From an uncultured Isosphaeraceae bacterium (GTDB taxonomy: Bacteria; Planctomycetota; GCA-002687715), in the NCBI GenBank assembly GCA_964507445.1, contig CAZDQF010000012.1, forward strand, positions 65,989-129,988: a stretch of 64,000 bases of DNA, given 5' to 3'. Positions 15,581 through 55,582 of the stretch are shown here, piece by piece (position 1 is the first letter of the stretch; every line of letters begins with the position of its first letter). The translations under genes were made by a program, and so were the position numbers. The notes under the pieces are model-generated. The model had not been told where the DNA came from. It saw only the letters and a list, made by a program, of their open reading frames with translations, and did not search any database.

Positions 15581-15603
15581 GGTCAGAACGGTACACTGCG
15601 GCC

Positions 15604-17163: not shown

Positions 17164-20100
17164 CTATAGCCGGTCCGGGAACTTGCCCCAGGTCACGGAG
17201 TACCCGAGGGGCGCCAAGGGGTTGATGAACGCACCCTGCACGGTGATCTGGATTCCGAGTGGGGGGTTGGGAAGGGTGAAGGGTCCCAGGTCGAAGTGTC
17301 CGTTCGGGTCCATGGTGGCGCCGGAGGGCGGGGCGAAGGTGCCGATGCCGTCCACCAGCGGGATGATGCTCGGCGCCGGGTAGGGCAGCACGGAGAGGAC
17401 GAAGTCCCCGGTGGGGTTCGGCCACGGGTAGATGGGCGTCGGGTTGCTCACGTCCACGACGCAGAGGAAGGGCATGTTGGGCATGCCGTTCTCGAAGTGG
17501 GCGATGTAGGTCTCGCCGGGTAGCGGGCCGAGCGGATGCCGGATCCCGATGCCGAGGTTGCTCGCGGGGCCGCCCACAGAGTGAGCCTTCGGATTGGACG
17601 GCACCGTGTGGGCGTTCTCCACCGCGATGGCGACCCCGCCTCGCTGCTGCACTCCGGGGTGCGTGCCCGGGATCTGGCACTGCAATTCCGTCGAGCTGAT
17701 GAACGTGGTGGAGAGCGGGAACTCATCGGCATAGGCCACGGTGCCCGGGTGGAAATTGGCGCCGAAGATGGTCACCGGATGGGGCGGGCTGGCGGGGTTC
17801 ATGATCGGACCGCCTGCAGGCTGCAGAGACGAGATCACGGGGGCGAGGACCGGGAACGGCAAGGCGCCGGAGATGCCGCCGAAGCCCATGCCGGTCACGT
17901 CGATGTTCTCCACGTCGATGTTCGCGGTCCCGGGTTGTCCGATAAGCGCTGCGGACACCAACCCCTGGACCTGCGTGTTCGAGACGTAGGTGGTGGGGAT
18001 CGCCGTTCCGTTCCAGCGCACCATGGTGGCGCCGTCGAAGAACCCGGTTCCGTTGACGTTCATGGTGAACGTGACGTCGCCGGCGATGGCGGAGGTGGGC
18101 GCTGTGGACGTCAGCGTCGGCGCCGGAATGACGGTGTTGAAGGCGATGCTCGACACCCCGCTGCCGACGGTGGGCGCCGGATTCGTCACGATGACGGAGA
18201 ACGTTGACAGGGCGGTGATGGACGACGCGGGGACCGTGGCCGTCAGCGTGTTGGCGTTGACGAACGTGGTCGCCAGGTTCAGGCCGTCGAAGCTGATGAC
18301 CGCACCCTGGACGAAGTTCGTGCCGTCGACGGTGAGCAGGAACGCGGGTCCCCCGGCGAAGGTCGTGGCCGGCGTGGTGGAGGTCACGACCGGGTTGGGA
18401 TTGTTGATGGTGAAGGTGGCCGCGGCACTGGTGCCTCCTCCGGGAGCCGGGTTCTCCACGGTCACCGCTGCGTATCCCGCGGATGTGACGAGGCTGGCCG
18501 GGATACCGCAGGCAAGTTGGCTCGATGACACGTAGGTCGTCGGCTGCGGAGCGCCGTTCCACCGGACTACAGAATTCGTGGTGAATCCGGTTCCCTGCAC
18601 GGTGAGAGTGAAGGACGGGTCATTCACGACCGCCGACGGGGGATTGAGGGAGCCGATGGCTGGAACGGGGTTGGTGATGGTGAACGTCTGTCCGTTGGAC
18701 GTGCCGCCGCCGGGCGCCGGACTCTGCACCGTCACCGTAGCGACGCCGGGGCTCGCGATCAGCGCCGCGGGTACGGTCGCCGCAAGCGTCGACGAGTTCA
18801 TGAAGCTCGTGCTCAGAGGCGTGCCGTTCCAGTGGACGATGGAGCCGAGGGCGAAGCCTGATCCGTGGACGGTGAGGCCGAAGGACGGCCCGCCGGCCGG
18901 GGTGGAGCTCGGAGTCATCGCCGTCGTGGAAGGAGCCGGGTTCGGTACTTGTTCCACCAGCATGGTGAACCCGAAGTAGGTCGCTGCGGAGACCGGTCCG
19001 GTATCGGTGGTGCAGACGATGGCGTGGAGACCGGGCGACAAGCTGACGGTGGACGTGACCCCGTCAACGCCGCTGGCGATGGCCGAGCCCCGTGGCCTGA
19101 AGTCGGCGTTCGTCCCAGGGTCGAACAGGCGCCACTTCAAGGGCGCGGCGTTGGACATGGTGATGTTGTAGTTTCCTGCGACGGGCGCGTCGAACTGGAA
19201 CAACCGGATGACCTCGTAGGCGTTCCAGTTCTGAGGGAGGGATGGCGTACCCACGGTGAGCGGATGACCCGATCTCGACTTGATGCGCGCGCTGCCGGTG
19301 CCGCCGACGCGGCTGGCCACGCCGTGAAGCGGGCTGACCGTGCCGTTGTCCCCGTTAGCGACAACGAACTCCGACACGGCACCCGGGGATTGAGAGAAGG
19401 CGGAGCCCACCCCCAGGTCCCAGTCAGAAGTGGATTGCAGTCCCACCGCGACCCATCCCCCGGCCTGGGCCGTGAAGGTGAACGGACTGCAAGGCTCCGA
19501 GATGGTCCAGGCGCTGGACCCCTGGAGATGCGCCAACGCGGTCGTCCTGTAGTGCACGGCGCCGCTCCAGACTCGGGGTGAGAACGTCGCGCCGAAAGGA
19601 TAGGTTTTCCCGGCCCCCTCGAGGATCTGGAGGTTCGCGTCCGCCGCGAAGACCGCGCCGGGAGAGGTGCCGACGAGGTCGTTCATGGCCGCGCCATTGG
19701 TCACCGTGACGTAGAACCCCTGGGTAGAGCCCGCCGCCAACGAGACCATCAGGCCGATGGGCAAAGGCGTCGGGACGTTGCCGCCGTTGGACACGACGCC
19801 CGTCGCTGCGCCGGCCAGGGTCCATGCGCTTGGATCGTTTTCCTTACCGATGAACGTGCCCCCACCGGTCACCGTGTAAACCTCCAAGTCCCAGGTCCCC
19901 GGGTCCAGGTTGACGTCGAAGCCGCAGATGCTGACGTCGTTGATCGCCACCAGATCGAACATGTTGCCGGCCTGTCCGCTGTTGGCGGCGAAGGTGGTGC
20001 CCAGGCTCGTCGTCGGAGTCGGACCAACGACCGTAAAGGGTAAGGATGAAGAGACGCCGCCGCCGGGCCCGGTCGTCTCCACGTCCACGCTGACGACTCC

Positions 20101-23100
20101 AGCGCTTGCAAGGAGGGACGACGTCGCGTAGCCGCGGAGTTCATTCGCAGAGATGAATTGCGTCGTCAACGCCGTTCCGTTCCACCGGACCGTGGAGTCA
20201 CCGCTGATGAACTGGGACCCCATGACGGTCAACCAGAATCCCGGAGTCCCGACGGATACGCTGGTGGTGCCCAGCGACGTTAGCGTGGGAGTCGGGTTCT
20301 CGACCGTGAAGGTGGTGAAGGCGCTGCCACCTCCGGGGGCCGGGTTCTCGACACCGATGGATGTGATGTTGGCGAAGTTGAACCAACCCTGGGAGTTGGT
20401 GAGCGTCACGGTGACCGTGTTGGCGTCGATGAACGTGGTCGGAAGCGCGTTGCCGCCGCCGTTGCCGAACCTGACCACCGAAGTGGAGTTGAAGTTCGAT
20501 CCGTTGACCGTGACCAGGAGCGGACCGCTGCCGAGGAGCGCCGTATCCGGAGTCACCGAGGAAATCGTGGGCGCGGGATTGGTGATGTCGAAGGTCAAGG
20601 GGGCGGAGATGCCGCCTCCAGGTCCCGAGGTCTCCACGTCCACCGCTGCGGTTCCGGGCAAGGCGATGAGCGGCGAGGGGACCGTGGCGCGAAGCTGAGT
20701 GGCGGAGACGAACGCAGTGAGGAGAGGCGTCCCGTTCCAGCGCACGGTGGAGGACCCGTTCACGAAAGCCGAGCCGTTGACGTTGAGCAGGAACGTCGGA
20801 CCTTCGGTGAGGACGGAGGGCGGGTCCAGAGAGGTGGGCGCGGGCGCCGGGTTCTCCACAGTGAAGGTGGTCGATCCGAAGCCGCCGCCGGGTGACGGGT
20901 TGGTGACGCCGACGATCACCGTGCCCGCGGCCGTGAGCGCCCCGCAGGGCACGGTCGCGGCGACCGTGTTGGCATCGACGAAGGTCGTCGCGAGGCTGAT
21001 GCCGTCGAAGCTGATCACCGAACTTGGGACGAACTCGGAACCGTTGACGGTGATGGGGAACGCTCCGCCCCCGTTCTCGTACCAGGCGACCTTGTGGTCA
21101 GGGTCGGTAGAGAAACCTCCGAATGCCAGCGACGCGGAGAGGACGTCCATGTCACAGTCGCCGTCAAGGTCCGCGGCGAAGACGCATTCGGGGGACTCAA
21201 CGTCCATGGAGATCGCGGAGGGCGGTCCGAAGCTGCCGCCGCCCAGATTCTCATACCACGTAATTTGCTCCGGAGAACTCCCGCCGGACGCGCCGGACGC
21301 GGAGAGCACGTCGGTGTCGCCGTCGCCGTCGAGGTCTGCGGCAAACACGCTCGTGGCGGAATCAGCGCTGGCGCTGACCACCTGCTGCGGTCCGAAGCTG
21401 CCGCCGCCCATGTTCTCGTACCACGCGATCTTGTCGTCCGTAATTGAAGCCGAGAGCACGTCACGGTCGCCATCACCATCGAGGTCCGTGGCGAACACGC
21501 TCGTCCCTCCCCACACGCCAGTGGGGGTGCCTGCTGGCCCGCTCAGCCATTGCTCGGCGCCGAAGCTGCCGCCGCCGGTGTTCTCGTACCACGCGATCCT
21601 GTCCTGAGACGCGTGGAGCACGTCGGTGTCCCCGTCGCCGTCAACGTCGATGGCGAAGACACTGCGGGCGCTGCCCGCACTCGTGGTGATGACTTGCTGG
21701 GCACCGAAGGTGCCGCCGCCGGTGTTCTCGTACCAGGCGATCTTGTTGTCGAGGGGGGAAGCGGAGAGCACGTCGTGGTCGCCGTCCCCGTCCACGTCGG
21801 CGGCGTGCACGCACCAGGCGCCTGCCGCGAGGGTCGTGATGACCTGCTGGGGTCCGAACGTGCCGCCGCCGAGGTTCTCGTACCAGGCGATCTTGTCGTC
21901 GTCAAAGGAGGCGGAGAGGACGTCCGCGTCATTGTCGCCGTCGAGATCGATGGCGAAGACGCTGGTGCCTCGCTGGAGGGTGGAGGGTATGGAGTACGTC
22001 GTGACCGCTTGCATGGTGCCGAAGTTGCCGTCCCCCAGGTTCTCGTACCAACCGATCGTGTGGAGAAACGCTGCGAGGACGTCGAGGTCGCCGTCGCCGT
22101 CCAGGTCTTCGGCGTAGACGCTTCGCGGTTCACGTTGATCCAGACCATTGGTGTACGGGCTGAGCACCTGCTGCGGTCCGAAGCTGCCAAGGCCGCCGAT
22201 GACCGCCGAGGACGGCGACGTGGACGTCACCGTCGGTACCGGGTTGACGGTGTTGAACGCGACGGAGGAGTATCCGCTGCCGATGGTGGGTGCGGGGTTC
22301 ACGACGCCGACGGTATAAGTCCCAATCCCGGCGATGGACGAGGCCGGGACGGTCGCCGTGAGGGTGCCCGCGTTCACGAACGTGGTCGCCAGGTTCAGGC
22401 CGTCGAAGCTGATCACGGACGTCGGGACGAAGTTCACGCCGTTCACCGTCAGGAGGAACGCCGGACCGCCGGCGGCGGCGGTGCTCGGAGTGGTGGAGAC
22501 GACCAGCGGGTCCAGGTTGTTCACGGTGAAGGTGTTCGCCGTGCTGACGCCGCCGCCGGGAGCGGGGTTCTCCACGGTCACCGCTGCGTACCCTGCCGAC
22601 GCGACGAAGCTCGCGGGGATGGCGCACGTCAGCTCGCTCGATGTCACGTAGGTCGTCGGCTGCGGAGCGCCGTCCCATTGGATGACGGAGCTCGACGAGA
22701 ATCCGGTGCCGATCACGGCGAGGGTGAACGCCCCGCCTCCCACCAGGGTCGATTGGGGAGTCAAGCCCGTGATGGTCGGCACGGGGTGCCCGATGGTGAA
22801 AGTCTGGGTCGTCGAGATGCCACCTCCGGGGGTCGGGTTCTGGACGCTGACGCTGGCGGTGCCGAACGTCGCCACCAGAGACGCGGGGACGGCTGCCGTG
22901 AGCTGGGAGGCGCTGACGAACGTGGTGCTCAGCGGCGCTCCGTTCCACTGGATGGTGGCGTTGGATGCGAAGCCGGACCCGTTGGCCGTCAGGGTGAAGC
23001 CGCCTGCGCCGGCGGTCGTTGCCGCGGGCGAGATCGACGTCAGCGCGGGCACCGGGTTCTGGGGCTGCGGCTCAACCAGCATGGAGAAGGTGAACGGCGT

Positions 23101-26100
23101 TCCCACCAGGCCGCTGTCGGTGGTGCAGACGATGGCATGCCAGCCTGGTGACAGGTTGACGGAGGAGGTCACCCCGTCGACGCCGTTGGCGATGGCGGCG
23201 TCCCGTGGCCTGAAGTCCGAGGTGGTCCCCGGGTCGAACAGACGCCACTTCAGGGGCGCCGCGTCGGACATGGTGATGTCGTACGTGCCCGCTGTCGTCA
23301 CACTGAATTCGAACGTCCTGATGACGCGGTTGGTGGGCCACGAGGCGATGGTGTAGGGCGTCCCCATGGCGAGCGTCACGTTGTAGGAACGCATGATGCT
23401 GGCGCCGTCCGTGCCGCTGACCCGGCTGGCGATGCCGTTGGCCTGATTGACGGGGCCGTTGCGGCCGTTGGCGATGACGAAGTCGGTGATGGCTCCCGAG
23501 GATCGGGAATGGACGCCGCCGATGCCGATGTCCCAGTCGGAGGTGGAGGCGCAGCCGACGGCGTTCCAGCGATTGAAGTCCAGAGTGAAGCTGAACGGGC
23601 TGCAAGGGTTGACGACGGATACCGGTACGGCGGTTGGAAGGGTGGTGTTCTGGAGCGCCGTCGGGCTGTAATGGACGGTGCCGTTCCAGACCCGGGGCGA
23701 GTACGTGCTTCCGAAGGGGTAGGTCTTTCCGGCTCCCTCCAGGATCTGGAGATTGGAATCCGCGGCATAGACCGCGCCGGCGGTCGTGCCGTTGGTGTAC
23801 TTGATGCCCGAGCCGTTGGTGACGGTGACGTAGAAGCCCTGGGTCGTGCCCGCCGTCATCGGCGTCATCAGGCTGATGGGGAGCGGCGTCGGGGCATTCA
23901 GGCCGTTGGAGACCACGCCGGCGGCCGACCCGATCAGAGTCCAGGCCGAGGAGTTGGTCTCGTTGCCGACGAAGGTGCCGCCTCCGGTGACCCCGTAGAC
24001 CTCGAGGTCCCACGTCCCCACGTCGAGGTTGACGTCGAAGCCGCAGATGCTGACGTCGTTGATGGCCACCAGATCGAACATGTTGCCGGCCTGGCCGTTG
24101 TTGCTCGCGAAGGTCGTGGTCAGTCCCGTTGCCTGGGAGAAGTTGTTGATGATGAAGGGCAAGGACGCCGAGGTCCCGCCCCCGGGGAGCGGGCTCTCCA
24201 CCAACACCGCCGCCGTGCCCGTCGTGGTCAGGAAGTTGTCCCCCACCAGAGCCTTGAGGGTGTTGCCGTCCTCGAAGGTGGTGGTCAGGGTGGTGCCGTC
24301 GAACTTGACCGTGGAGTCGGCGACGAAGCCGGACCCGCTGACCGTGATCTGCAACGGATCGAAGGTGTTCTCGTACCAGGTGATCGCGGAAGTGCTGAGG
24401 GACAGGGAGAGGATGTCGAGGTCGCCGTCGCCGTTGAGGTCGCTGGCGAACACGTTGTTGGCGTAGTCCGCCGTGGTGGAGACGACGTTCTCGGGCCCGA
24501 AAGAGCCGCCGAGGTTCTCGTACCAGGCGATCTTGTCGTCGAACCGGGACGCCGACAGCACGTCGCGGTCGCCGTCGCCGTCCAGATCGGCGGCGAACAC
24601 GCTCACGGCGCCGTCGGCGCTGCTGCTGATCACCTGCTGGGTCCCGAAAGACCCGCCGAGGTTTTCGTACCAGGCGATCTTGTCGTCGCCTTGAGACGCG
24701 GAGAGGACATCCACGTCGCCGTCGCCGTCGAGATCGGCGGCGAAGACGCTACGGGCGCCCTGCGCGTTGGTGGTGATCGTCTGCGGGGTACCGAATCCCC
24801 AGGGGAAGTTCTCGTACCAGGTGATGCGGTTGTCGCCCTGGGACGCCGACAGCACGTCGGCGTCACCGTCGCCGTCAAGGTCCGCGGTGAAGACGTCCAT
24901 GGCGCCCATCGCGTTGCTGGTGATCAAGTGCTGGGGCCCGAAGGAGCCGCCGATGTTCTCGTACCAGGCGATCTTGTTGTCATCGCGGGACGCGGAGAGG
25001 ACGTCGAGGTCGCCATCCCCATCGAGGTCCGCGGCGTGAACGGCGTAGGCGTAGGCGAGGTTGCTGGTGATCACCTGCGGTGCGCCGAAGGACCCGCCGC
25101 CGAGGTTCTCGTACCAGGCGATCTGGTTGCTGGGCAGGGAGACCGAGAGGACGTCGAGGTCGCCGTCGTTGTCGAGGTCGCCCGTGTGCACGTCAACGAA
25201 ATGACTGTAGGTACCAGCGTGGACCACGACGTTTTGCGGGGCTCCGAAGGATCCGCCGAGGTTCTCGCACCACCGGACGGCGTTGACCGTGGTGCCGAGG
25301 ATGTCGTTGTCGCCGTCACCGTCGAGGTCGGCGGCGTGGACGTCCCATGCGAAGCCAAAGCCCGTCGCGATCACCTGCTCCGGGCCGATTCCACCGGCCG
25401 GAGTGACGACGGGGCTGCTGTCCGGGGTGACCGAGGTCAGCGTCGGGACCGGGTTCACGAAGGTGACCGTGAACGGCGTCGAGGCCGACGTCCCGCCGCC
25501 TGGCGACGGGTTGAAGACCTCCACGTCGTGGGTCCCTGCCGTGGCGACGTAGCTCGCCGGGATGGTGCATCGCAAGAGGCCGGGCAGCACCAGGGTGGTG
25601 GGCTGGCTCAGGCCATTCCATCGGATCACCGAGCTGGTGTTGAAGCCGGAGCCGAGGAGGTCGAGGCTGAAGGACCCGCTGCCGGCGGTGGTGGAGGACG
25701 GGAACATGCCGGTGACCGAGGGCGTCGGGTGACCGATGAGTAGGGTCTGGCTCGGGGAGAATCCGCCCCCCGGGGCCGGGTTCTCGATGCTGATGGCAGC
25801 GGTTCCGACGGTGGCCGTGAGGGATGAGGGTACGGATGCCGTGAGCTGGGACGTGCTGACGAAGGTGGTGGCCAGAGGGGTGTTGAGAGTCGTGCCGCTC
25901 CAGTGGACCATCGCGCCCGAGACGAAGTTGGAGCCGTTGGCGGTCAGGGTCAGGGTGCCGCCGCCGACGGTCGCTGACGTGGGGGCGATCGACGTCAAGG
26001 TGGGTAACGGGTTCGATCCAGGGATGCTGTCCACGCGGACCTGGAACGACAGGCTGCTGGCGGGCGCACCGAAGGGGTGGGTGACGGCGATGGCGTGCCA

Positions 26101-29004
26101 TCCGGCGTCGAGGGTGACGGTGTGGGTCGTGCCGTTCGCAACTCCGTTGATCACGAAGTCGCTGCTGGGTCGCCACTGGGAGTCGTTCCCCGGTGCATGG
26201 AGCTTCCAGTACAGGGCGCTGCTTCCCGTGAGCGTGATGTCATAGCTGCCAGCGGTGGTGGCGTTGAAGTCGAACATCCGGATCACGAAAGAAGCCGGCC
26301 AGCTGGAGGAGAGGGTCGTGCCGACGGGGAGACCATCGATGTCCGCCCGCTGCAAGCGCGCCGCCGCGGCGCCCGCGTTCAGGACGGCGACTCCGTTCTG
26401 CGGGTTGATGGCTCCGAGGTGACCGTTGGTGATGACGTAGTCCGTCAGGCCGAAGGCGTAGCCGGACTGGGCCGAGCCGACGCCGATGTTCCAGTCCGAG
26501 GTCGAGGCCACGCCCACGGCGTTCCAACGATTCGCGGCGGTGACCGTCGTGAAGGGGTGGCAGGGACCGCCGATGTTGCTGACGGAGATGCCGCTCAGGG
26601 GGACATTGCTGGCCACCGGGCAGACGTTGCTCATGACGTAGGTCGTGTCGGGTGACGGTCCGTTGTTCCGGTAGAGAAGGAGCGCGTGGTATCCCGTGCT
26701 CGACACCGTCACGGTCCAGGTCGTGCCGCTCGCCGTCCCGCCGCCGATGTAGTCGTTCTTGCGGATCCAGTTGGCGTCGGACTGGGGTGCGTAGAGGCGC
26801 CAGGAGATGGAGGAGTCTCCCGTCACGGTGACGGCGTAGGTGCCGGTGGCGGCGAGGTTGATCTCTCGAAGCTCCAGGATCTCGCCGGGGCTGAACGTGT
26901 CGACCCCGTTGAATCCGGTCGCGCCGAGCGCCGTGGCGCCCTCAGCCTCCACCGTCGCGTCGGCGGACCCGGCGGTGCCGATGACCAGCCCGGTGGTGGG
27001 GCTGATGGCCCCGTGGTGTCCGTTGGCCAGAACGAAGTCCGCGCCCGTGGTCGTCGACGTGGCGCTTCCCATCACCAGGTTCCAGTTGGAGGACGACGAG
27101 ACGCCCACCACGTTCCACCGACCGGCCACCGGGTTGACACCGATCTCCCGGCAAGGCGTGGCGTTGGTGATCACGGCCGGGCTCTCGTTGGCGATCAGGT
27201 TGATGGAAGACCCGTTGCACACGGTGACCCCGAAAGTGGACGGGGTCACGGCCGCCGTGCCGTTGTCCTTGTAGACGACGATGACGTGCCAGCCCGCGTC
27301 GAAGAGCAGGTGGTTGCTGGCGCCGTCGCCCACGGTTCCGCTGGCGATCAGCGTGGTCGAGTTCCGTGCCCGCCAGCTCTCATCCGAACCGGGCTTGTAC
27401 AGGCGCCAGCTCAGGTCCGGGCTGCCGGAGACGGCGATCTCGTAGTAGCCGCCCAGGGACTCGAACTCGAACATCTGCATGACGTCCGTGGACCCCCAGG
27501 TGTTGGTGTCCATGGTCCCCACGGTGAGGGTCTGGGCCTCGAGGAGATCGGCGCGAGCGGTGTCGGTGCCGACGTACTGATCGAACTCCCCGGACGTCGG
27601 GGCGACGGTGCCCAGGTGCCCGTTGGCGATGATGAAGTCGCAGCTCCCGCCGCTCAGGGTCGAGCTGGCGTCTTCATGGATGAGGTCCCAGTCGCTGGCG
27701 GACGTGATGCCGAAACCGACCCAGCTGTTGGCTGCCGGTGTGCCGTTGAACACCTGGAAGTCGCAGGTCACCGGGTCTGAGTTTCCCGTGGTGGAGCTGG
27801 CGAGGTACTGGTTCGAGCAGCCGACGGTGTTGGAGATGGCGATCTGCAATCCGGGTGTCAGGATGCTCTGGGCGTGGTTGTTCAAATAGCCTGCCAATGC
27901 ACACCCACCGTGCGTGTGTATCCCGATCACCTCCCCGGTCGCCTCATTGATCATGGGAGCCCCAGAGGCGCCGCCAGCGGAATCAACAAGGTGCTCAATG
28001 TAATCGTTGACGTAAGCGGTAAGGGGTCCCGTCGCCGTCTGCTGAGCGCACCAGTACGCAGGGTCATTCGCATCAACTCCAAAGCCGGTGAGGCGGAGTA
28101 CTGGGTTGTTTGGCGGAGGCAGGATTAGAGGCAAGGTCGTCGCGAGGGTGAAGTGCGCGCCCTGGTTCCCGACCGCCGTCTGCCCGGTGGAATTCGGGTG
28201 GAGGCGCCCCACGAGCCAATCGGCACCAATGCCGTTGTTGAGGGACCAGATGGAAGACTGGTCCACCGGGTACTGATCGGCCACGGGAGGATGCTGAAAC
28301 TGAGCCGGTGGACTATTACCGGGGTTGGACACTGGAAGGGACAACGGAACGTTGAACTCCGCGATGACCACCGCCCCGGGCGGTACCTGGTTGGGATTCA
28401 AAGGGCCGGGTGCATAGCAATGCCCGGCGCTGACGATGGTGTTGGTGTCGCTGATGAGGAATCCGGTGCAAGCTGCAGGTCCGGTACCCAAGCTGGATAC
28501 GAGGCGGCAGACGCGCGGGTCACTGCTGGGGACTCGATCGTCGATACCCGCGCAAATCGAAGCTAATGGGTCATTGCCGTGATGCTGCCCGACCAACCCG
28601 AGTGCACCCACATAGAGATCACGGATGACCACCTGCCCGACGGATCCCGCAGCCAGCTCCACGGAGAGCTCCAGACGGTCGCCGTTGAACCACGCGGTGT
28701 GGTTGCGCCAGAGCTTGAGGTTGGAGAGGGTGAGGCGCTGCTGCTCGCCGTCGCGGGGATTGGTGACGACGATGGCGTCGTCCGGGTGTTGCAGGTCCGC
28801 CGTGTCGAAGAGGAGCTGTAGGGAGGGCGCCCCGGGTACGGTCACCGTAGTCTTCCACACCGTCTTGGACCCGGCCCCGCTGTTGGAAAGGATGCCGGAG
28901 GCGAGGGGATAGGGGATCATGGTCCCCATAGGCGCCGGTGATTGAGAGGCGGCCGAGGTCACAAGGCAGACAAGGACGGCAGCAAGGCGTGACTGGCGCA
29001 TCAT
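17164..29004 (-). CDS. Giant (3946 aa) secreted multidomain protein: N-terminal trypsin-like S1 serine protease, pre-peptidase-like beta-sandwich repeats, about 20 IPT/TIG domains, two FG-GAP/VCBS beta-propeller arrays, conserved C-terminal domain
   Basis: Signal peptide MMRQSRLAAVLVCLVTSAASQ with RBS GGAG 7 nt upstream. Protease motifs SAGHCY and GGASGAP. Repeated W(R/K)LY/F...PG.D..WR modules. IPT/TIG repeats (P.LTS..P.SA..GG..FTLT.NGS.F..GS.V.WNG..L.TTFVS...L.A.VP). FG-GAP blades (VFAADLDGDGD.DVLSAS..D.KIAWYENLGGGSFG). The frame stays open for 11.8 kb. Confidence 0.85.
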   Translation of the reverse strand: MMRQSRLAAVLVCLVTSAASQSPAPMGTMIPYPLASGILSNSGAGSKTVWKTTVTVPGAPSLQLLFDTADLQHPDDAIVVTNPRDGEQQRLTLSNLKLWRNHTAWFNGDRLELSVELAAGSVGQVVIRDLYVGALGLVGQHHGNDPLASICAGIDDRVPSSDPRVCRLVSSLGTGPAACTGFLISDTNTIVSAGHCYAPGPLNPNQVPPGAVVIAEFNVPLSLPVSNPGNSPPAQFQHPPVADQYPVDQSSIWSLNNGIGADWLVGRLHPNSTGQTAVGNQGAHFTLATTLPLILPPPNNPVLRLTGFGVDANDPAYWCAQQTATGPLTAYVNDYIEHLVDSAGGASGAPMINEATGEVIGIHTHGGCALAGYLNNHAQSILTPGLQIAISNTVGCSNQYLASSTTGNSDPVTCDFQVFNGTPAANSWVGFGITSASDWDLIHEDASSTLSGGSCDFIIANGHLGTVAPTSGEFDQYVGTDTARADLLEAQTLTVGTMDTNTWGSTDVMQMFEFESLGGYYEIAVSGSPDLSWRLYKPGSDESWRARNSTTLIASGTVGDGASNHLLFDAGWHVIVVYKDNGTAAVTPSTFGVTVCNGSSINLIANESPAVITNATPCREIGVNPVAGRWNVVGVSSSSNWNLVMGSATSTTTGADFVLANGHHGAISPTTGLVIGTAGSADATVEAEGATALGATGFNGVDTFSPGEILELREINLAATGTYAVTVTGDSSISWRLYAPQSDANWIRKNDYIGGGTASGTTWTVTVSSTGYHALLLYRNNGPSPDTTYVMSNVCPVASNVPLSGISVSNIGGPCHPFTTVTAANRWNAVGVASTSDWNIGVGSAQSGYAFGLTDYVITNGHLGAINPQNGVAVLNAGAAAARLQRADIDGLPVGTTLSSSWPASFVIRMFDFNATTAGSYDITLTGSSALYWKLHAPGNDSQWRPSSDFVINGVANGTTHTVTLDAGWHAIAVTHPFGAPASSLSFQVRVDSIPGSNPLPTLTSIAPTSATVGGGTLTLTANGSNFVSGAMVHWSGTTLNTPLATTFVSTSQLTASVPSSLTATVGTAAISIENPAPGGGFSPSQTLLIGHPTPSVTGMFPSSTTAGSGSFSLDLLGSGFNTSSVIRWNGLSQPTTLVLPGLLRCTIPASYVATAGTHDVEVFNPSPGGGTSASTPFTVTFVNPVPTLTSVTPDSSPVVTPAGGIGPEQVIATGFGFAWDVHAADLDGDGDNDILGTTVNAVRWCENLGGSFGAPQNVVVHAGTYSHFVDVHTGDLDNDGDLDVLSVSLPSNQIAWYENLGGGSFGAPQVITSNLAYAYAVHAADLDGDGDLDVLSASRDDNKIAWYENIGGSFGPQHLITSNAMGAMDVFTADLDGDGDADVLSASQGDNRITWYENFPWGFGTPQTITTNAQGARSVFAADLDGDGDVDVLSASQGDDKIAWYENLGGSFGTQQVISSSADGAVSVFAADLDGDGDRDVLSASRFDDKIAWYENLGGSFGPENVVSTTADYANNVFASDLNGDGDLDILSLSLSTSAITWYENTFDPLQITVSGSGFVADSTVKFDGTTLTTTFEDGNTLKALVGDNFLTTTGTAAVLVESPLPGGGTSASLPFIINNFSQATGLTTTFASNNGQAGNMFDLVAINDVSICGFDVNLDVGTWDLEVYGVTGGGTFVGNETNSSAWTLIGSAAGVVSNGLNAPTPLPISLMTPMTAGTTQGFYVTVTNGSGIKYTNGTTAGAVYAADSNLQILEGAGKTYPFGSTYSPRVWNGTVHYSPTALQNTTLPTAVPVSVVNPCSPFSFTLDFNRWNAVGCASTSDWDIGIGGVHSRSSGAITDFVIANGRNGPVNQANGIASRVSGTDGASIMRSYNVTLAMGTPYTIASWPTNRVIRTFEFSVTTAGTYDITMSDAAPLKWRLFDPGTTSDFRPRDAAIANGVDGVTSSVNLSPGWHAIVCTTDSGLVGTPFTFSMLVEPQPQNPVPALTSISPAATTAGAGGFTLTANGSGFASNATIQWNGAPLSTTFVSASQLTAAVPASLVATFGTASVSVQNPTPGGGISTTQTFTIGHPVPTITGLTPQSTLVGGGAFTLAVIGTGFSSSSVIQWDGAPQPTTYVTSSELTCAIPASFVASAGYAAVTVENPAPGGGVSTANTFTVNNLDPLVVSTTPSTAAAGGPAFLLTVNGVNFVPTSVISFDGLNLATTFVNAGTLTATVPASSIAGIGTYTVGVVNPAPTIGSGYSSVAFNTVNPVPTVTSTSPSSAVIGGLGSFGPQQVLSPYTNGLDQREPRSVYAEDLDGDGDLDVLAAFLHTIGWYENLGDGNFGTMQAVTTYSIPSTLQRGTSVFAIDLDGDNDADVLSASFDDDKIAWYENLGGGTFGPQQVITTLAAGAWCVHAADVDGDGDHDVLSASPLDNKIAWYENTGGGTFGAQQVITTSAGSARSVFAIDVDGDGDTDVLHASQDRIAWYENTGGGSFGAEQWLSGPAGTPTGVWGGTSVFATDLDGDGDRDVLSASITDDKIAWYENMGGGSFGPQQVVSASADSATSVFAADLDGDGDTDVLSASGASGGSSPEQITWYENLGGGSFGPPSAISMDVESPECVFAADLDGDCDMDVLSASLAFGGFSTDPDHKVAWYENGGGAFPITVNGSEFVPSSVISFDGISLATTFVDANTVAATVPCGALTAAGTVIVGVTNPSPGGGFGSTTFTVENPAPAPTSLDPPSVLTEGPTFLLNVNGSAFVNGSSTVRWNGTPLLTAFVSATQLRATVPSPLIALPGTAAVDVETSGPGGGISAPLTFDITNPAPTISSVTPDTALLGSGPLLVTVNGSNFNSTSVVRFGNGGGNALPTTFIDANTVTVTLTNSQGWFNFANITSIGVENPAPGGGSAFTTFTVENPTPTLTSLGTTSVSVGTPGFWLTVMGSQFISGDSTVRWNGTALTTQFISANELRGYATSSLLASAGVVSVDVETTGPGGGVSSSLPFTVVGPTPTTSLGTTFAANSGQAGNMFDLVAINDVSICGFDVNLDPGTWDLEVYTVTGGGTFIGKENDPSAWTLAGAATGVVSNGGNVPTPLPIGLMVSLAAGSTQGFYVTVTNGAAMNDLVGTSPGAVFAADANLQILEGAGKTYPFGATFSPRVWSGAVHYRTTALAHLQGSSAWTISEPCSPFTFTAQAGGWVAVGLQSTSDWDLGVGSAFSQSPGAVSEFVVANGDNGTVSPLHGVASRVGGTGSARIKSRSGHPLTVGTPSLPQNWNAYEVIRLFQFDAPVAGNYNITMSNAAPLKWRLFDPGTNADFRPRGSAIASGVDGVTSTVSLSPGLHAIVCTTDTGPVSAATYFGFTMLVEQVPNPAPSTTAMTPSSTPAGGPSFGLTVHGSGFALGSIVHWNGTPLSTSFMNSSTLAATVPAALIASPGVATVTVQSPAPGGGTSNGQTFTITNPVPAIGSLNPPSAVVNDPSFTLTVQGTGFTTNSVVRWNGAPQPTTYVSSSQLACGIPASLVTSAGYAAVTVENPAPGGGTSAAATFTINNPNPVVTSTTPATTFAGGPAFLLTVDGTNFVQGAVISFDGLNLATTFVNANTLTATVPASSITALSTFSVIVTNPAPTVGSGVSSIAFNTVIPAPTLTSTAPTSAIAGDVTFTMNVNGTGFFDGATMVRWNGTAIPTTYVSNTQVQGLVSAALIGQPGTANIDVENIDVTGMGFGGISGALPFPVLAPVISSLQPAGGPIMNPASPPHPVTIFGANFHPGTVAYADEFPLSTTFISSTELQCQIPGTHPGVQQRGGVAIAVENAHTVPSNPKAHSVGGPASNLGIGIRHPLGPLPGETYIAHFENGMPNMPFLCVVDVSNPTPIYPWPNPTGDFVLSVLPYPAPSIIPLVDGIGTFAPPSGATMDPNGHFDLGPFTLPNPPLGIQITVQGAFINPLAPLGYSVTWGKFPDRL

Positions 29005-29254: not shown

Positions 29255-29330
29255 GAGCGCGGAGGGGTTCAAGGTGGGCCGAGACAACGAGCTCAAGAAG
29301 AGCGGCGGGGGGGCGTGTGCGCATGAAGAG
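29255..29330 (+). pseudogene. Remnant of the 3' end of a parallel beta-helix gene (duplicate of 17020-17088)
   Basis: The nucleotide run gcggaggggttcaaggtgggccgagacaacgagctcaagaag, encoding SAEGFKVGRDNELKK, matches the C-terminus of the 15604-17088 protein (AEGFKVGRDNELKKNRKGRVRVK). Only about 25 codons remain and they then diverge. It lies just 3' of the second giant gene, the same relative position as the intact copy. Confidence 0.55.
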
Positions 29331-29362
29331 ACCGCGTCACTCCACAGGGAGTGACGCGGTCT
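29329..29362. terminator. Perfect 15-bp stem / 4-nt loop hairpin downstream of giant gene 2 (putative terminator)
   Basis: agaccgcgtcactcc-acag-ggagtgacgcggtct. Same relative position as the 17131-17158 hairpin. Confidence 0.5.
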
Positions 29363-29392
29363 GTTTCACGCTGCCTGGTGGCTCAGAGAGTC

Positions 29393-32300
29393 TTAGAGCT
29401 GGTCAGGGTAGCGGGGCCATTGGAGGGTGAAGCCCACCGGTGAGCTGGGGTTGATGTAGGCACCCTGCACCGTGATGCTCCAGCCGAGGGCCGGGTTGGG
29501 GAGGGTGAGACCCGGGAGGGTGAACTCACCGGCGGCGTCGTAGACGATGCCGGGGATCGGAGGTCCGAAGACACCGATGCCGTCGATCACCACGAACCAG
29601 TCCCCCGGGACCGCCGGCTGGGAGCCGCGGACCGACAGCACGAAGTCTGCCGCGGGGCTCGGCCACGGATAGATGGGGGTCGGGTTGGTGAGGTCCGCCA
29701 GCAGCAGCAGCGGGAAGCCCGGCAGGCCGCTCTCGCAGCGGGCCCCGTAGGACTCGCCCGGCAGCGGCGCCAGCGGGTTGCGGGTGACGGTGCCGGCGTT
29801 GCTGCCGAGACCGCCGACCACGCACGCCACCGCGTTGGACGGCACCGTGTGGGCGTTCTCCACCGCGATGGCGAGGCCGCCGCGGCGCAGGGCGCCGAGC
29901 ACCGTCGGGCCCACCTGGCAGCTCAGGGTGGAGCTGTTCAGGTAGGTGGTGGGCAGGGCGTAGCCGTCGGCGTAGGCGACGGTGCCCGGATGGAAGTTGG
30001 TCCCCGTGATGGTGATGGTCTGAGCCGGTGATGCCGCGGTCAGGATGGGGATCGAGGACGGCGTGATGTTGATGATCGAAGGCGCAAGCACCGGGAACGA
30101 CAGGGCGCCGGAGGCGCCGCCGCCAGGACCGGCGGTCTCCACGTCCACGTTGGCGGTGCCCGGCGTCCCGATGAGGGCCGCGGACACCGTGGCCTGCAGC
30201 TGGTTCGAGGAGACGAAGCTCGTGGGCAACGGGCCGCCGTTCCAACGCACCTGGGAGTCACCGTTGATGAAGTCGGAGCCGTTCACGTTCATGGTGAACG
30301 TGGCGTCGCCGGCGACGGCGAACGTGGGCGCCACCGAAACGATGGACGGTGTCGGGTTCTCAACGGTGAAGTTGGTGGAGCCCAGACCGCCGCCGGGCGC
30401 CGGGTTCTCCACGCTGACCAGCACCGATCCGGCGGTGGACAGGGATGCGCCGGGCACCGTGGCGGTGACCGCGTTGGCGCTCACCAGGGTGGTGGCCAGA
30501 CCCAGCCCGTTGAATCGGATCACCGAGCTGCTGTTGAAGTTGGCGCCGTTCACCGTGATGGCCAGGGGGCCGCTGCCCACCACCGCTGAGGCGGGGCTGA
30601 CGGAGGCCACCGTGGGCACCGGGTTGTTGACCGTGAAGGTGCTGATGGGAGTGATGCCGCCACCGGGTGACGGGTTGAACACCTGCACGTTCCGGGTCCC
30701 GGCGTTGGTGATGAAGCCGGCCGGGATGGTGCAGCGCACCAGCGTCGACGACACCAGGGTGGTGGACTGGCTCAGACCGTTCCACCGGATCACTGAACTG
30801 CCGTTGAAGTTGGAGCCGCTGACGTTGAGGGTGAAGGCTCCGCTCCCTGCGGTGGCCGACGACGGGCTCAGGGAGCTCAGGGTCGGCGCCGGGTTGTTGA
30901 TGGTGAAGGTCTGGCTGCCGGAGATGCCGCCGCCGGGGGCGGGGGTCTCCACGTCCACGGACGCGGTGCCGGCGCTGGCGATGAGCGCGGAGGACACCGA
31001 GGCCGTGAGCTGGCCGGAGTTCACGTAGGTGGTCGTCAGGTTGCTGCCGTTCCAGCGGATGCTGGAGCCGGAGATGAAGTTCGATCCGTTCACGGTCAGG
31101 GTGAAGGAGGAACCACCAGCGAAGGCCGAGCTCGGCGACAGGGACGAGGTGGACGGCGCCGGGTTGGGCGTCGGCTCCACGGTCACGGAGAAGGTCGGTT
31201 GTGACGACGGGTCCGCGGTGGCGTGGTAGACGCTGATGGCGTGCCACCCGGTGGTGGAGAAGGTCCGGGTCAGCGTGGTGCCGCCCGCCGCGCCCAAGGC
31301 CACGTAGTCGTTGTCCGATCGCCAACTGGCGTCCGTGCCCGGTTCATGGAGTCGCCACGACAGGTTCGGGGCGTTGTCCAGGGTGATGTCGTAGCTGCCC
31401 GGGCTCGGGATGTCGAACTCGAACATGCGGATCACCCGGTTGGCCGGCCATCCGGCGATGGTGTACGGCGTCCCCACGTTCAGGGTCACCGTGTAGGAGC
31501 GCATGAGGCGAGCGCTGTCCGCTCCGGAGAAGCGAGAGGAGACGCCGTTGCTGGGGGTGACGGTGCCGTTATGTCCGTTGGCGATGACGAAGTCGGTGAC
31601 GCCGCCACCGGACCTCGAGTAGCCCGTGCCCACACCGATGTCCCAGTCGGAGGCCGAGGCGACACCGACCGCGTTCCACCTGCCGGACTCCGGCGAGAAC
31701 GTGAAGGGGGCGCAGGGACCCGCAGCCGTGGCCACACCGAACCCGGACAGGGTGGTGCTGGTGGAGACGGAACAGATGTTGGACATCACCGTGGTGGTGT
31801 CGGTGGAGGGCCCGTTGTTGCGATACAGCAGCAGGGCGTGGTACCCGGTGCTGGAAACCGTCACGTTGACGGTGCCCCCGCCGCCGTTGCCGGAGGCGAT
31901 GGAACTCGCTTCCGGGACCCAGTTGGCGTCCGATTGAGGCGCGTAGAAGCGCCACGAGATCGAGGAATCCCCGACCACCGTGATGGCGTAGGTGCCCGTG
32001 GAGGTGAGGTTCACCTCGCGCAGCTCCAGGATCTCCCCTGCGGCGAACGCGTCCACCGAGTTGGACCCGGTTGCGCTGAGGGACAGGGCGTCCTGGTGCT
32101 CCATGGTCCCGTCTGAGGAGCCGGAGAACCGGTTCACCTGACCCCATATGGGAGAGATGGTGCCGAGGTGCCCGTTGGCGAGGGCGAAGTCGGCGCCGCC
32201 CGTGTAGGAGGTCGCGCTGCCCAGCACCAGGTCCCAGTCGGAGGGAGAGGAGATGCCGACCACGTTCCATCGTCCCGCCACCGCCGTTATCCGGAAGTCC

Positions 32301-34129
32301 TGGCACGGGTCGGTGATGGTCGTCGGAACGTTGTCCGTGAGCAGGATTGACCCCGTCGCCGAGCACACCGTGACCGCGAGGCTGGTGGGGCTGACCGCCG
32401 CGACGCCGTCGTCCTTGTAGACCACGATGACGTGCCATCCGGTGTTCAGGGTCGCGCCCTGGTATGTGGAAAGGCCGACGGTCCCGCTGGCCTCCAGGGT
32501 CGTGGAGGTGCGGCTGCGCCATCCGGCGTTCGACCCCGGTGCGTACAGCCGCCAGTTGAGGTCGCTGCTGCCGCTGACGGTGATGTCGAAGCTGCCCGCG
32601 GCCGTGACCTCAAACTCGAACATCTGCATCACGTCGGTGGACCCCCAGGAGCTGGTCTCCGTCTCGCCGACCGCGAAGGTCTGGGCTTCGAGGAGGTCTG
32701 CGTAGGCGTTGGAGCCGCCGGAGAAGCGGTTCAGCTCGCCGGAGGTGGGCGCGACGGTTCCGAGGCGCCCGTTGGCGATGATGAAGTCGCAACTGCCGCC
32801 ACCGAGGACCGACGACGCATCTTCGTGGATCAGGTCCCAATCGCTGGCCGACGTGATACCGAAGCCGACCCAGCTGTTGGCCGCAGGTGTGCCGTTGAAC
32901 ACCTGGAAATCGCAGGTCACCGGGTCGGCGGCCCCGCTCTGCGAGCTGGCCAGGAACTGGGTCGAGCACCCGACGGTCTGTGCGATGGCCGTTTGCAGCG
33001 CTGGCCGGAGAATGCTGGTCCCGCTGTTGGAGCTGGTGGAGCTGGTGCCGCAGCCGCCGTTGGTGTGGATGCCGATGGCCAGGCCCGTCGCGGTGTCGAT
33101 GATGGGGCTCCCGGAGTTGCCGCCCTCGGTATCCACCCGGTGGCGGATCTGGTCGCCTACGTACCCGAAGTGCGTGCCGGTGTCCGTCTGTTGATCGTAG
33201 GCGCGGGTAGCGTTGTTGCTGTCATCCCCGTGTCCGGTGACGCGGAGGTTGGGCACCACGAACGGCGGGATGTACGCCGGCAAGGTCGTGGCCAGGCTAA
33301 AGAATGAACCCTGGTTGCCGAAAGCCGTGGTGCCTGTGGAGTTGGGGTGCAGGCGCGCGACGGCCCAGTCGTCGCCGCCTCCCGGCAGGCCCAGATTTTC
33401 GAACTGGATGGTGGATTGATCCACCGGGTACTGATCTGCGACGGGTGGGTGCTGGGCGCAGCCTGCGGCGTTGGATGCCGGGGTGTTGAATTCGGCGATG
33501 ACAAACCAGTCCGGCAGCGGGTCGGCGCAGTGGCCGGCGCCGAGGATGGTGTTGGTCGAGCTGATCAACCAACCGGTGCAGGAGCCGCACGACGCGGCCG
33601 TCATGACGAGTCGGCAGACGCGTGCGTCATTGCTCAGGGTCCGCTCGTCGCCGCTGCCGCAGATGGTGTTGGACGTGCCCAGGATGGGCTGGATCCCCGC
33701 GTAGACGGTGCGGATGACGATCTGGCCGGTGGAGCCTGGCGCCAGCTCGATGGCCACGTCCACACGGTCTCCGTTGAACCACGCGGTGTGGTTCCGCCAC
33801 TGCTTCAGGCGCAGGTGATCGAGCCGCTGGGTCTCCCCGTCTCGCGGGTTGGTCAGGATGACGGCGTCGTCAGGACCGATCTCGACGGTGTCGAAGAGCA
33901 ACTGGAGCGAATGGGCCCCGGTGACCTGGATGGGTGCGCTCCACGCTCGCCAGGGGATGTCCCTGCCGTTGCTCACCAAGCCCGAAGAGGCGGGGTAGTT
34001 GACCGCGGTGGCGATAGGTGCAGAGGGTTGGGCCACGACCGAAGGCATGGTCGCGGCGACGAGGAGGAGCGTCAGCGCTCCGAGTGCGGTGACTCGGCCG
34101 ACAGGCCGGACACTGATGGAGAGGGACAT
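29393..34129 (-). CDS. Large (about 1578 aa) secreted trypsin-like S1 protease with pre-peptidase-like repeats, about 6 IPT/TIG domains and a conserved C-terminal domain (paralog of the 17164-29004 protein)
   Basis: Internal Met MSLSISVRPVGRVTALGALTLLLVAATMPSVVAQ is a signal peptide, preceded by RBS AGGAAG. The ATG at 34129 was checked. The protease region aligns with gene 1 (SLQLLFDT...NPRDGE.QRL...WRNHTAWFNGDR; AGHC; GNSGSPI). The C-terminal 170 aa is shared with gene 1. Confidence 0.85.
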   Translation of the reverse strand: MSLSISVRPVGRVTALGALTLLLVAATMPSVVAQPSAPIATAVNYPASSGLVSNGRDIPWRAWSAPIQVTGAHSLQLLFDTVEIGPDDAVILTNPRDGETQRLDHLRLKQWRNHTAWFNGDRVDVAIELAPGSTGQIVIRTVYAGIQPILGTSNTICGSGDERTLSNDARVCRLVMTAASCGSCTGWLISSTNTILGAGHCADPLPDWFVIAEFNTPASNAAGCAQHPPVADQYPVDQSTIQFENLGLPGGGDDWAVARLHPNSTGTTAFGNQGSFFSLATTLPAYIPPFVVPNLRVTGHGDDSNNATRAYDQQTDTGTHFGYVGDQIRHRVDTEGGNSGSPIIDTATGLAIGIHTNGGCGTSSTSSNSGTSILRPALQTAIAQTVGCSTQFLASSQSGAADPVTCDFQVFNGTPAANSWVGFGITSASDWDLIHEDASSVLGGGSCDFIIANGRLGTVAPTSGELNRFSGGSNAYADLLEAQTFAVGETETSSWGSTDVMQMFEFEVTAAGSFDITVSGSSDLNWRLYAPGSNAGWRSRTSTTLEASGTVGLSTYQGATLNTGWHVIVVYKDDGVAAVSPTSLAVTVCSATGSILLTDNVPTTITDPCQDFRITAVAGRWNVVGISSPSDWDLVLGSATSYTGGADFALANGHLGTISPIWGQVNRFSGSSDGTMEHQDALSLSATGSNSVDAFAAGEILELREVNLTSTGTYAITVVGDSSISWRFYAPQSDANWVPEASSIASGNGGGGTVNVTVSSTGYHALLLYRNNGPSTDTTTVMSNICSVSTSTTLSGFGVATAAGPCAPFTFSPESGRWNAVGVASASDWDIGVGTGYSRSGGGVTDFVIANGHNGTVTPSNGVSSRFSGADSARLMRSYTVTLNVGTPYTIAGWPANRVIRMFEFDIPSPGSYDITLDNAPNLSWRLHEPGTDASWRSDNDYVALGAAGGTTLTRTFSTTGWHAISVYHATADPSSQPTFSVTVEPTPNPAPSTSSLSPSSAFAGGSSFTLTVNGSNFISGSSIRWNGSNLTTTYVNSGQLTASVSSALIASAGTASVDVETPAPGGGISGSQTFTINNPAPTLSSLSPSSATAGSGAFTLNVSGSNFNGSSVIRWNGLSQSTTLVSSTLVRCTIPAGFITNAGTRNVQVFNPSPGGGITPISTFTVNNPVPTVASVSPASAVVGSGPLAITVNGANFNSSSVIRFNGLGLATTLVSANAVTATVPGASLSTAGSVLVSVENPAPGGGLGSTNFTVENPTPSIVSVAPTFAVAGDATFTMNVNGSDFINGDSQVRWNGGPLPTSFVSSNQLQATVSAALIGTPGTANVDVETAGPGGGASGALSFPVLAPSIINITPSSIPILTAASPAQTITITGTNFHPGTVAYADGYALPTTYLNSSTLSCQVGPTVLGALRRGGLAIAVENAHTVPSNAVACVVGGLGSNAGTVTRNPLAPLPGESYGARCESGLPGFPLLLLADLTNPTPIYPWPSPAADFVLSVRGSQPAVPGDWFVVIDGIGVFGPPIPGIVYDAAGEFTLPGLTLPNPALGWSITVQGAYINPSSPVGFTLQWPRYPDQL

Positions 34130-49685: not shown

Positions 49686-49809
49686 GTACCGGCAGGGTCG
49701 TTGGCCGACGGGTTCGAGCGGGCGCGCACTTGATCGAGGGCAGTGTACCGCCGAGGGAACGGCCAGCGCCACGCTAATCCTGCGAACAACCTCTGCCTTG
49801 TCGCGGCGC

Positions 49810-54902: not shown

Positions 54903-55582
54903 TCCCGCGAACTCCTTGTTGAGAGAGGGCAGCCCGACCATCACCCGACGCACCCGGCGAGCGCAGCTCGGAGCTGCTGTCACCGATACGCGAGCGCAAA
55001 CGGGATACCGTTCTCCTCGCTCTCAGGGCCTATCCAGAAGCCCTTGCTTGTAAGGTCCTTACATCCGGCGCCCTTGCTGCGCTATGACGCTCGCCGTCAA
55101 GCGGAGCGGAAGCGCACGGGAGGGTTTGCCGGAGCGTCTCTCGATCCTCCCGCTTCCATCAGGCGGGAGGCGACGAGGATTGTAGGAGCGGTGCCAGGAC
55201 CGGTCAACGGCTCAGGACTTGGGCCTTGGAGGCGGGGCCGGTAACGTCCGCGCTCTCTCTCATGACCGCCGAATTCAGAAATTCCCGCAGATCATCCGGT
55301 CCCGTGCGAGGTCCTGGTTTCGTCTCCCTGGGAACCGTGCCTCCCAGGGCGGAGGAGGCGCTCGCGGCCTGCACAGAGCGAGCTGGGTGTCGACTCTTCC
55401 GTGCATCTGGCCCGGCGGCGGAAGGGGATTGGGCGGTTCAAGGCGAGCCGGATCAACTGGCCGCCCTGAGGGTCCTGGTGGCTCCCCTGGGTGACTTGGC
55501 AGGGGTCGCTGGAGCCCTGGGCTCGGCCGTGGATGCTGGACCAGGCCCGGACCCCCTCCCGCCGGCGGACCAGGACCTGTAC

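Follow-up and report, generated by a model that had tools for sequence, protein, structure and literature searches.

The stretch analysed here, referred to in its full length of 64,000 nucleotides as the window, is part of contig CAZDQF010000012.1 from an uncultured Isosphaeraceae bacterium (Planctomycetota). On its minus strand it carries a giant gene of 11,841 nt (17164..29004; ATG start, 3946 codons plus stop). The gene is intact, and we consider it probable that it encodes a Sec-exported, very acidic, multi-head extracellular member of a family of 'proteases on a stalk'. The head is an S1 serine protease with a complete catalytic triad. Behind it extends a stalk of TIG domains and of two kinds of beta-sandwich modules, termed WRLY and QAG below, into which two FG-GAP propellers are nested, and the protein ends in a C-terminal domain that is conserved in the family. 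The initial annotation, made from the letters of the window, had listed these domains in this order; list and order were both right and only the counts had to be corrected. Annotation with hidden Markov models (HMMs), which it had named as a check, matched Trypsin_2, Trypsin, TIG and FG-GAP. Repeat domains were located by iterated HMMs built from the protein's own repeats and the results were merged with those of Pfam and NCBIfam.

An intact giant gene

The reading frame runs unbroken through all 3946 codons, as had been claimed, then without mention of the strand. The ATG is preceded at 6-7 nt by GGAG. The GC content at third codon positions (GC3) is 0.87, matching adjacent genes, and codon bias is even along the entire frame. 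An interruption in independent sequence data, considered initially as a possible counter-argument, was not encountered; the exact product recurs in separate assemblies. A 3945-aa product (counted from Met2) was present as an exact match on 7 contigs of 50-200 kb (ENA/NCBI assemblies), and a 3918-aa version starting at Met29, 100% identical, was found on 10 further JGI contigs. Overall, the identical product is carried by 16 metagenome contigs, which represent several samples and two sources of assemblies. DNA repeats within the gene are 60-79% identical, with a ceiling of 79% over 300 nt. Because of this limited identity and because the same product is present on many contigs, repeat collapse, mis-joining or repeat-driven mis-assembly are very unlikely. 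At every junction of the protein the domain borders stay in register.

The protein is strongly acidic (290 D+E versus 97 K+R). A scan of the whole protein for hydrophobic segments beyond the signal peptide yielded none and, thus, no transmembrane segment. Planctomycetota are known for giant genes that encode surface proteins (PMC5177795), and with 11,841 nt the gene exceeds the 5 kb above which a gene is termed giant (Reva & Tummler, per PMC5177795). It shares with the planctomycetal giant genes described earlier (Reva & Tummler 2008; Kohn et al. 2016, PMC5177795) the length of >5 kb and a repetitive, predicted surface protein as the product. It differs in having a protease head, a resolved domain grammar and a smaller, ancestor-like paralog.

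The protease head

Residues 1-20 (28945..29004, minus strand as are all parts of the gene), MMRQSR followed by LAAVLVCLVTSAA, read as a signal peptide with a basic n-region, a hydrophobic core and then small residues ahead of SQ. In aligned homologs the signal peptides end in ..A-Q. Sequence features and alignment thus bear out the signal peptide of the initial annotation. A lipoprotein was rejected since the signal peptide is devoid of a lipobox. An N-terminal pro-region follows (residues ~21-148; 28561..28944), in which the family alignment showed W99, F106 and G108 to be conserved. It stops short of a CxxxDDRxxS..R motif located ahead of the catalytic domain. We infer that the pro-region acts as a propeptide and is processed off. 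A DDR motif ahead of the first barrel is presumably also present in the Bacillus glutamyl endopeptidases.

The catalytic domain of the S1 type (S1B/V8-like) comprises residues ~149-400 (27805..28560) and was assigned by Pfam and by alignment, with H195, D262 and S347 as the triad. The two motifs on which the initial assignment was based are at residues 192-197 (SAGHCY) and 343-349 (GGASGAP). When the N-terminal 399 aa were scanned alone, Trypsin_2 scored 32.2 bits (cut-off 27.6) and Trypsin 30.7 bits (cut-off 20.6); in the Pfam scan of the whole protein neither was listed at E <= 0.01. A PDB search with the single sequence of the head gave zero matches and a family profile was needed to find relatives. 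This profile matched V8 and glutamyl endopeptidases with E-values from 3e-10 to 2e-9. The catalytic motifs aligned as LTAGHC with LTNGHC, DWAV with DFAV and GGNSGSP with SGNSGSA (family and PDB enzymes, respectively), and H195, D262 and S347 were in register with the three corresponding motifs in 1p3c, 6tya and 1qy6. In an alignment of 33 sequences S347 was invariant, and H195 and D262 were kept in at least 90%. The assignment as an S1 protease was therefore confirmed with the full triad aligned to solved glutamyl endopeptidases. A missing triad, raised initially as a possible objection, is not the case: His, Asp and Ser are complete and conserved in the family. The nucleophile motif reads GGASGAP, compared with GGNSGSP in the family and in the gene's own paralog (see below); the Ser is retained. 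Based on the retained nucleophile Ser347 the head is likely to be catalytically active.

With the glutamyl endopeptidases and V8 (MEROPS S1B; PDB 1qy6, 1wcz, 6tya, 1p3c) the head shares the catalytic family and the His/Asp/Ser motifs. Those enzymes, too, are secreted and have an N-terminal pro-region. In contrast, the match is at the profile level only, the pro-region is far longer and conserved, and the chain continues for ~3,500 aa beyond the catalytic domain. Homologs of the head are numerous; JGI annotates this family as 'V8-like Glu-specific endopeptidase', and most members are 430-700 aa in length. They span pro-region and catalytic domain and are mostly stand-alone, with assorted small C-terminal domains; some of these smaller homologs carry PF18962 tails. 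The few homologs with a named source are from metagenome-assembled genomes (MAGs) of Planctomycetota or Acidobacteria. The word-indexed search used here returned nothing above ~700 aa and missed even the 3945-aa protein of the query and the 1578-aa paralog; queried with the WRLY profile, it retrieved one fragment and overlooked known members. The lack of long homologs in it is therefore uninformative.

WRLY modules

Directly behind the head are three WRLY modules (residues 412-598, 614-796 and 811-995; 26020..27771). Using an HMM of its own, module 4 was located at residues 1797-1981 (23062..23616; also by structure comparison) and module 5 at residues 3168-3354 (18943..19503). The initial estimate of about five W(R/K)LY modules thus turned out to be exactly five. 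Pfam and NCBIfam did not recognise the WRLY segments, and PPC (PF04151) was absent even at E <= 10. The predicted structure had the PPC/collagen-binding beta-sandwich fold. Because ~98 of 185 residues align we call WRLY an elaborated PPC-like sandwich of ~185 aa, as judged by the model. Lower in the list of fold matches were the proteases KP-43 and Tk-SP, each with its C-terminal domain. PPC-like folds typically come after secreted proteases and often bind substrate. In the clostridial collagenases ColG and ColH the head is an M9 metalloprotease, whereas here it is an S1 protease; further, the WRLY modules have ~185 aa and no Pfam PPC match, and they are placed directly after the head and not C-terminally.

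A TIG stalk with nested propellers

The stalk consists of 15 TIG domains. Our own HMM found 15 copies, the NCBIfam model CoaZ_rpt_PGGG (NF058597) scored 1048 bits over 15 stretches and Pfam TIG (PF01833) 214 bits over 11 stretches; a PGGG motif is present in 11 of the 15. The initial annotation had counted about 20. TIG 1-2 are at residues 999-1180 (25465..26010), TIG 4-6 at residues 1984-2253 (22246..23055) and TIG 11-15 at residues 3356-3809 (17578..18939), all three groups detected by Pfam, NCBIfam and our HMM. TIG 8-10 (residues 2719-2992; 20029..20850) were detected by NCBIfam and our HMM. All 15 match the 'choice-of-anchor Z repeating domain' (NF058597) or Pfam IPT/TIG. The NF058597 model covers the repeat alone; the C-terminal domain found here is without an NCBIfam model.

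The remaining two, TIG 3 (residues 1183-1619; 24148..25458) and TIG 7 (residues 2256-2716; 20857..22239), are split by propellers. Propeller 1 is a seven-bladed FG-GAP insert at residues ~1203-1549 (24358-25398) and propeller 2 is at residues ~2272-2646 (21067-22191). Behind each propeller the TIG match covered HMM positions 15-19 to 88 and the first strand is located before the propeller. We then excised residues ~1203-1549 and ~2272-2646 in silico. This restored full-length TIG domains with 104 and 106 bits, equal to the intact copies. The returning matches show each propeller to be inserted into a TIG domain, at an early loop. Over the whole protein FG-GAP_3 scored 338.9 bits (Pfam; FG-GAP families PF13517/PF01839). 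Two arrays had been predicted correctly; the blades number 7 and 7 plus one weak partial unit by our HMM, and not 8 and 7. A DxD/NxDGxxD loop is present in 13 of 14 blades and in all seven of propeller 1. In integrin alpha subunits a loop of the DxDxDGxxD type is a calcium-binding motif.

The seven repeats per array and the calcium-type loops resemble those of integrin alpha and of bacterial propeller proteins with FG-GAP (VCBS-type) repeats. Metagenomes abound in propellers of this type, with 45-60% identity. In those metagenomic proteins which we inspected such a propeller starts right behind the signal peptide (FGPQQVI...), i.e. it is an N-terminal head, whereas here it is inside an Ig-like TIG domain. 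A metagenome scan with the cassette, in which generic propellers dominated, gave 0 of 79 loci that pair a propeller with WRLY, QAG or the C-terminal domain.

QAG modules

Two QAG modules were identified, QAG 1 at residues 1620-1790 (23635..24147) and, by an HMM of its own, QAG 2 at residues 2995-3162 (19519..20022), which is 69% identical to QAG 1. The initial annotation had described two jelly-roll-like modules, of which the number was confirmed and the jelly-roll supported. Pfam and NCBIfam did not recognise them. Fold comparison suggested a resemblance to PHR (PAM/Highwire/RPM-1) and to galactose-binding-like carbohydrate-binding modules (CBM), that is to a generic beta-sandwich at low sequence identity. 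More than 170 homologs of 200-620 aa were found; those with a name are nearly all from Planctomycetota MAGs. They have the signature LTTTFAxNNGQxGNMFD... in common (homologs P0125-P0244). In roughly 60 homologs with listed domain coordinates QAG is placed directly behind the signal peptide, and some homologs end in PEP-CTERM. Judging from the sequences, the internal position of QAG is particular to the giant gene. As an aside, homolog P0204 had a weak NCBIfam match, below threshold, to PepA, a PEP-CTERM protein associated with flocculation (E 5e-5).

The C-terminal domain

The protein ends with a family-specific domain (residues ~3810-3946, ending ..GYSVTWGKFPDRL; 17167..17577), delimited by family conservation. 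A distinct C-terminal domain had been postulated and this was correct: the domain has ~145 aa, is well conserved (51% identity averaged over the columns of 19 aligned sequences) and ends in the family consensus GFRLTWARFPDxL. It is kept in the paralog, in the related locus L007, in ~25 cluster representatives and also in astacin-headed proteins (all below). Searches of Pfam, NCBIfam and, with a profile, the PDB returned no relatives. Models for the C-terminal domain of the type IX secretion system (T9SS), PEP-CTERM, LPXTG, SLH and invert_tail matched neither the last 228 aa (E <= 10) nor the 19 aligned domains, and the tail ..WGKFPDRL is non-hydrophobic. PEP-CTERM, T9SS or LPXTG cargo was rejected because there is no such tail. 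Similarly, an S-layer protein was rejected because SLH or another known anchor family is absent (Pfam, NCBIfam).

Serine-protease and metalloprotease cargo have the C-terminal domain in common. On this ground we put it forward, as a hypothesis, as a candidate domain for anchoring or sorting. T9SS cargo proteases offer an analogy which is functional only. They, too, combine a protease with Ig-like or beta-sandwich modules and have a conserved beta-rich C-terminal domain across different heads; in contrast to them, the giant protein has no match to Por_Secre_tail or another T9SS C-terminal domain.

A family of proteases on a stalk

Residues 1-1000 were searched with phmmer against 1.84 billion representatives, with 1621 matches at E <= 0.001. 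About 25 representatives of 50% identity clusters matched the full query with head, three WRLY modules, two to seven TIG domains and the C-terminal domain (1277-1805 aa). A family member of 3043 aa has the S1 head, 3 WRLY modules, 16 TIG domains, PKD and FG-GAP. By its predicted domains the combination of S1, TIG and FG-GAP is therefore not unique to the giant gene. The initial annotation had considered the combination unusual. For the core, common to ~25 clusters, and for FG-GAP, present in the 3043-aa relative, this has to be revised; it holds for the nested propellers and the internal QAG modules, which are particular here. The family is widespread in Planctomycetota and uncharacterised. 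New in detail are the nested propellers, the internally captured QAG heads, the PPC-like WRLY modules, the scaffold shared with astacins and the unannotated C-terminal domain.

A paralog with this core architecture is located in tandem upstream (29393..34129, minus strand; 1578 aa, also called with 1578 aa in locus L008). It comprises a signal peptide, a pro-region, an S1 protease (GGNSGSP), 3 WRLY modules, 5 TIG domains and the C-terminal domain. Its head is 53% identical to that of the giant protein and its WRLY copies correspond one-to-one to copies 1-3 of the giant. A genome scan with residues 1-1000, in a collection that did not yield the window's own genome, identified only one GTDB representative, the Planctomycetota MAG JBGANV010000003.1. 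It contains two core genes in tandem (locus L007, 9782-19768).

In other relatives the head is an astacin (M12A), followed by TIG, two WRLY modules, further TIG domains and the same C-terminal domain (P0269, P0271, P0312). Two unrelated protease classes thus share one scaffold. Because astacin and S1 heads are both mounted on it, we view the scaffold of WRLY, TIG and C-terminal domain, as far as sequences can tell, as a carrier for different protease heads.

Origin of the giant gene

The giant gene shows an internal segmental duplication, with DNA repeats offset by 4113-4119 nt and 65-78% identical. It consists of the family core plus two diverged cassettes of ~1,370 aa, each with a propeller in a TIG domain, QAG, WRLY and extra TIG domains. 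By homology, the cassettes contain domains which elsewhere form the N-terminal heads of separate proteins. For this reason the giant looks like several 'head-on-stalk' proteins fused on one rod. Its origin may be reconstructed in three steps. A core gene would have been duplicated in tandem; one core would then have acquired a cassette of TIG domains, a propeller, QAG and WRLY; later, the cassette would have been duplicated. The last step is suggested by the repeat offset of 4113-4119 nt and by the 69% identity of the QAG copies.

Genomic surroundings

The paralog and the giant gene are separated by a spacer of 388 nt. Just past the stop of the paralog and upstream of the giant gene a strong RNA hairpin is predicted (29321..29371, minus strand; dG -43.5 kcal/mol, z -8.5), with a 15-bp perfect stem inside a longer helix. 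It is without a T-tract and was hence missed by the terminator scan; terminator and promoter scans at both ends of the giant gene found none. The hairpin and the spacer suggest that paralog and giant gene are transcribed separately. The genes on either side are of the housekeeping type or unrelated. Upstream neighbours are thiolase and FadB-like genes; downstream are RtcB, a glycosyltransferase of the PMT family and, in convergent orientation, a NosD-like beta-helix protein.

Four further observations concern the neighbourhood. A PMT_2-family glycosyltransferase (minus strand) and a NosD-like right-handed beta-helix protein (plus strand) at 14018-17088 are directly downstream in every contig recovered. 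At 6829-9789 (minus strand) an open reading frame (ORF) of 986 aa, which begins like a signal peptide and is without a Pfam match, adjoins RtcB in all recovered metagenome contigs. Another large predicted peptidase, encoded at 47184-49919 (minus strand), has 911 aa and combines an M14 zinc carboxypeptidase domain with a ~430-aa unannotated C-terminal extension. Finally, an ORF of 926 aa (52203-54983, minus strand), high in GC3 and likewise without a Pfam match, has an N-terminal hydrophobic segment followed by ~24 uninterrupted glycines.

Discussion

It is reasonable to infer a secreted protease with adhesin-like modules. Taken as a multi-head protease on a stalk, the giant protein would be exported by Sec, and removal of the pro-region would activate the protease. 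The C-terminal domain may retain the protein at the cell envelope or direct its final sorting, and the TIG rod would project both the protease and several binding modules. A polymeric or particulate substrate that is bound by the molecule may then be attacked by its own protease. In this scheme binding by the WRLY, QAG and propeller modules, catalysis and C-terminal anchoring are all putative.

Several points weigh against it. With GGASGAP in place of GGNSGSP, the head could differ in activity or in specificity. Both the PPC-like and the CBM-like fold are generic beta-sandwiches, and modelled fold likeness at 6-18% identity does not establish ligands. An anchoring or sorting role for a C-terminal domain without a recognisable relative is a guess, and there are no genes for secretion or sorting machinery among those of the window.

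The best surviving alternative, which we rate as rather unlikely, is a mainly structural or adhesive surface protein (adhesin, holdfast or surface-layer component), in which the protease would act only in cis for self-maturation or release. About 3,500 of the 3,946 aa are indeed non-catalytic Ig-like, propeller and beta-sandwich modules; FG-GAP propellers with calcium loops and TIG arrays are typical of adhesins, and the altered nucleophile motif, too, would fit. However, the family of the head consists mostly of stand-alone secreted proteases of 430-700 aa, in a search that returned only proteins below ~700 aa. Moreover, the same scaffold can carry an unrelated astacin in place of this head, an indication that the protease is the payload, and the PPC-like modules are directly behind the head, as in substrate-binding secreted proteases.

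The proposal can also be taken further. WRLY-TIG stalk and C-terminal domain might constitute an undescribed planctomycetal system for surface display or sorting with interchangeable heads (S1, astacin, propeller, QAG), of which the giant would be a natural multi-head fusion. A dedicated machinery would recognise the C-terminal domain, much as T9SS C-terminal domains or PEP-CTERM tails are recognised. We consider this extension doubtful.

Considerably less probable is a pseudo-protease head, kept as a binding fold in a purely non-enzymatic mega-scaffold. Such a head might explain the change from GGNSGSP to GGASGAP and Pfam scores barely above threshold. Yet His195, Asp262 and Ser347 are all kept and aligned with the catalytic residues of solved enzymes, whereas pseudo-proteases usually lose at least one residue of the triad, and the paralog retains the consensus GGNSGSP. 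An artefact, i.e. a chimeric assembly across repeats or a merger of adjacent genes by sequencing errors, might be suspected with a metagenomic source and an internally repetitive gene; its probability is practically nil, as it was ruled out by the identical full-length product on 16 contigs and is at odds with repeats of just 60-79% DNA identity, uniform codon bias and in-register domain borders.

We thus favour the multi-head protease on a stalk. A major concept would change only if the C-terminal domain turned out to be a new sorting signal, and the giant gene is an example of modular growth in which a core was enlarged, not a new type of system. Three unannotated domain families can be curated from it: WRLY (PPC-like), QAG (PHR/CBM-like) and the C-terminal domain as a candidate signal for sorting or anchoring. 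Planctomycetota play a major part in degrading polymeric and particulate organic matter, and they have many giant genes whose function is unknown. Here, beside a paralog with the core architecture, the locus shows how such a giant gene can grow, by the insertion of head-type domains into a pre-existing Ig-like stalk.

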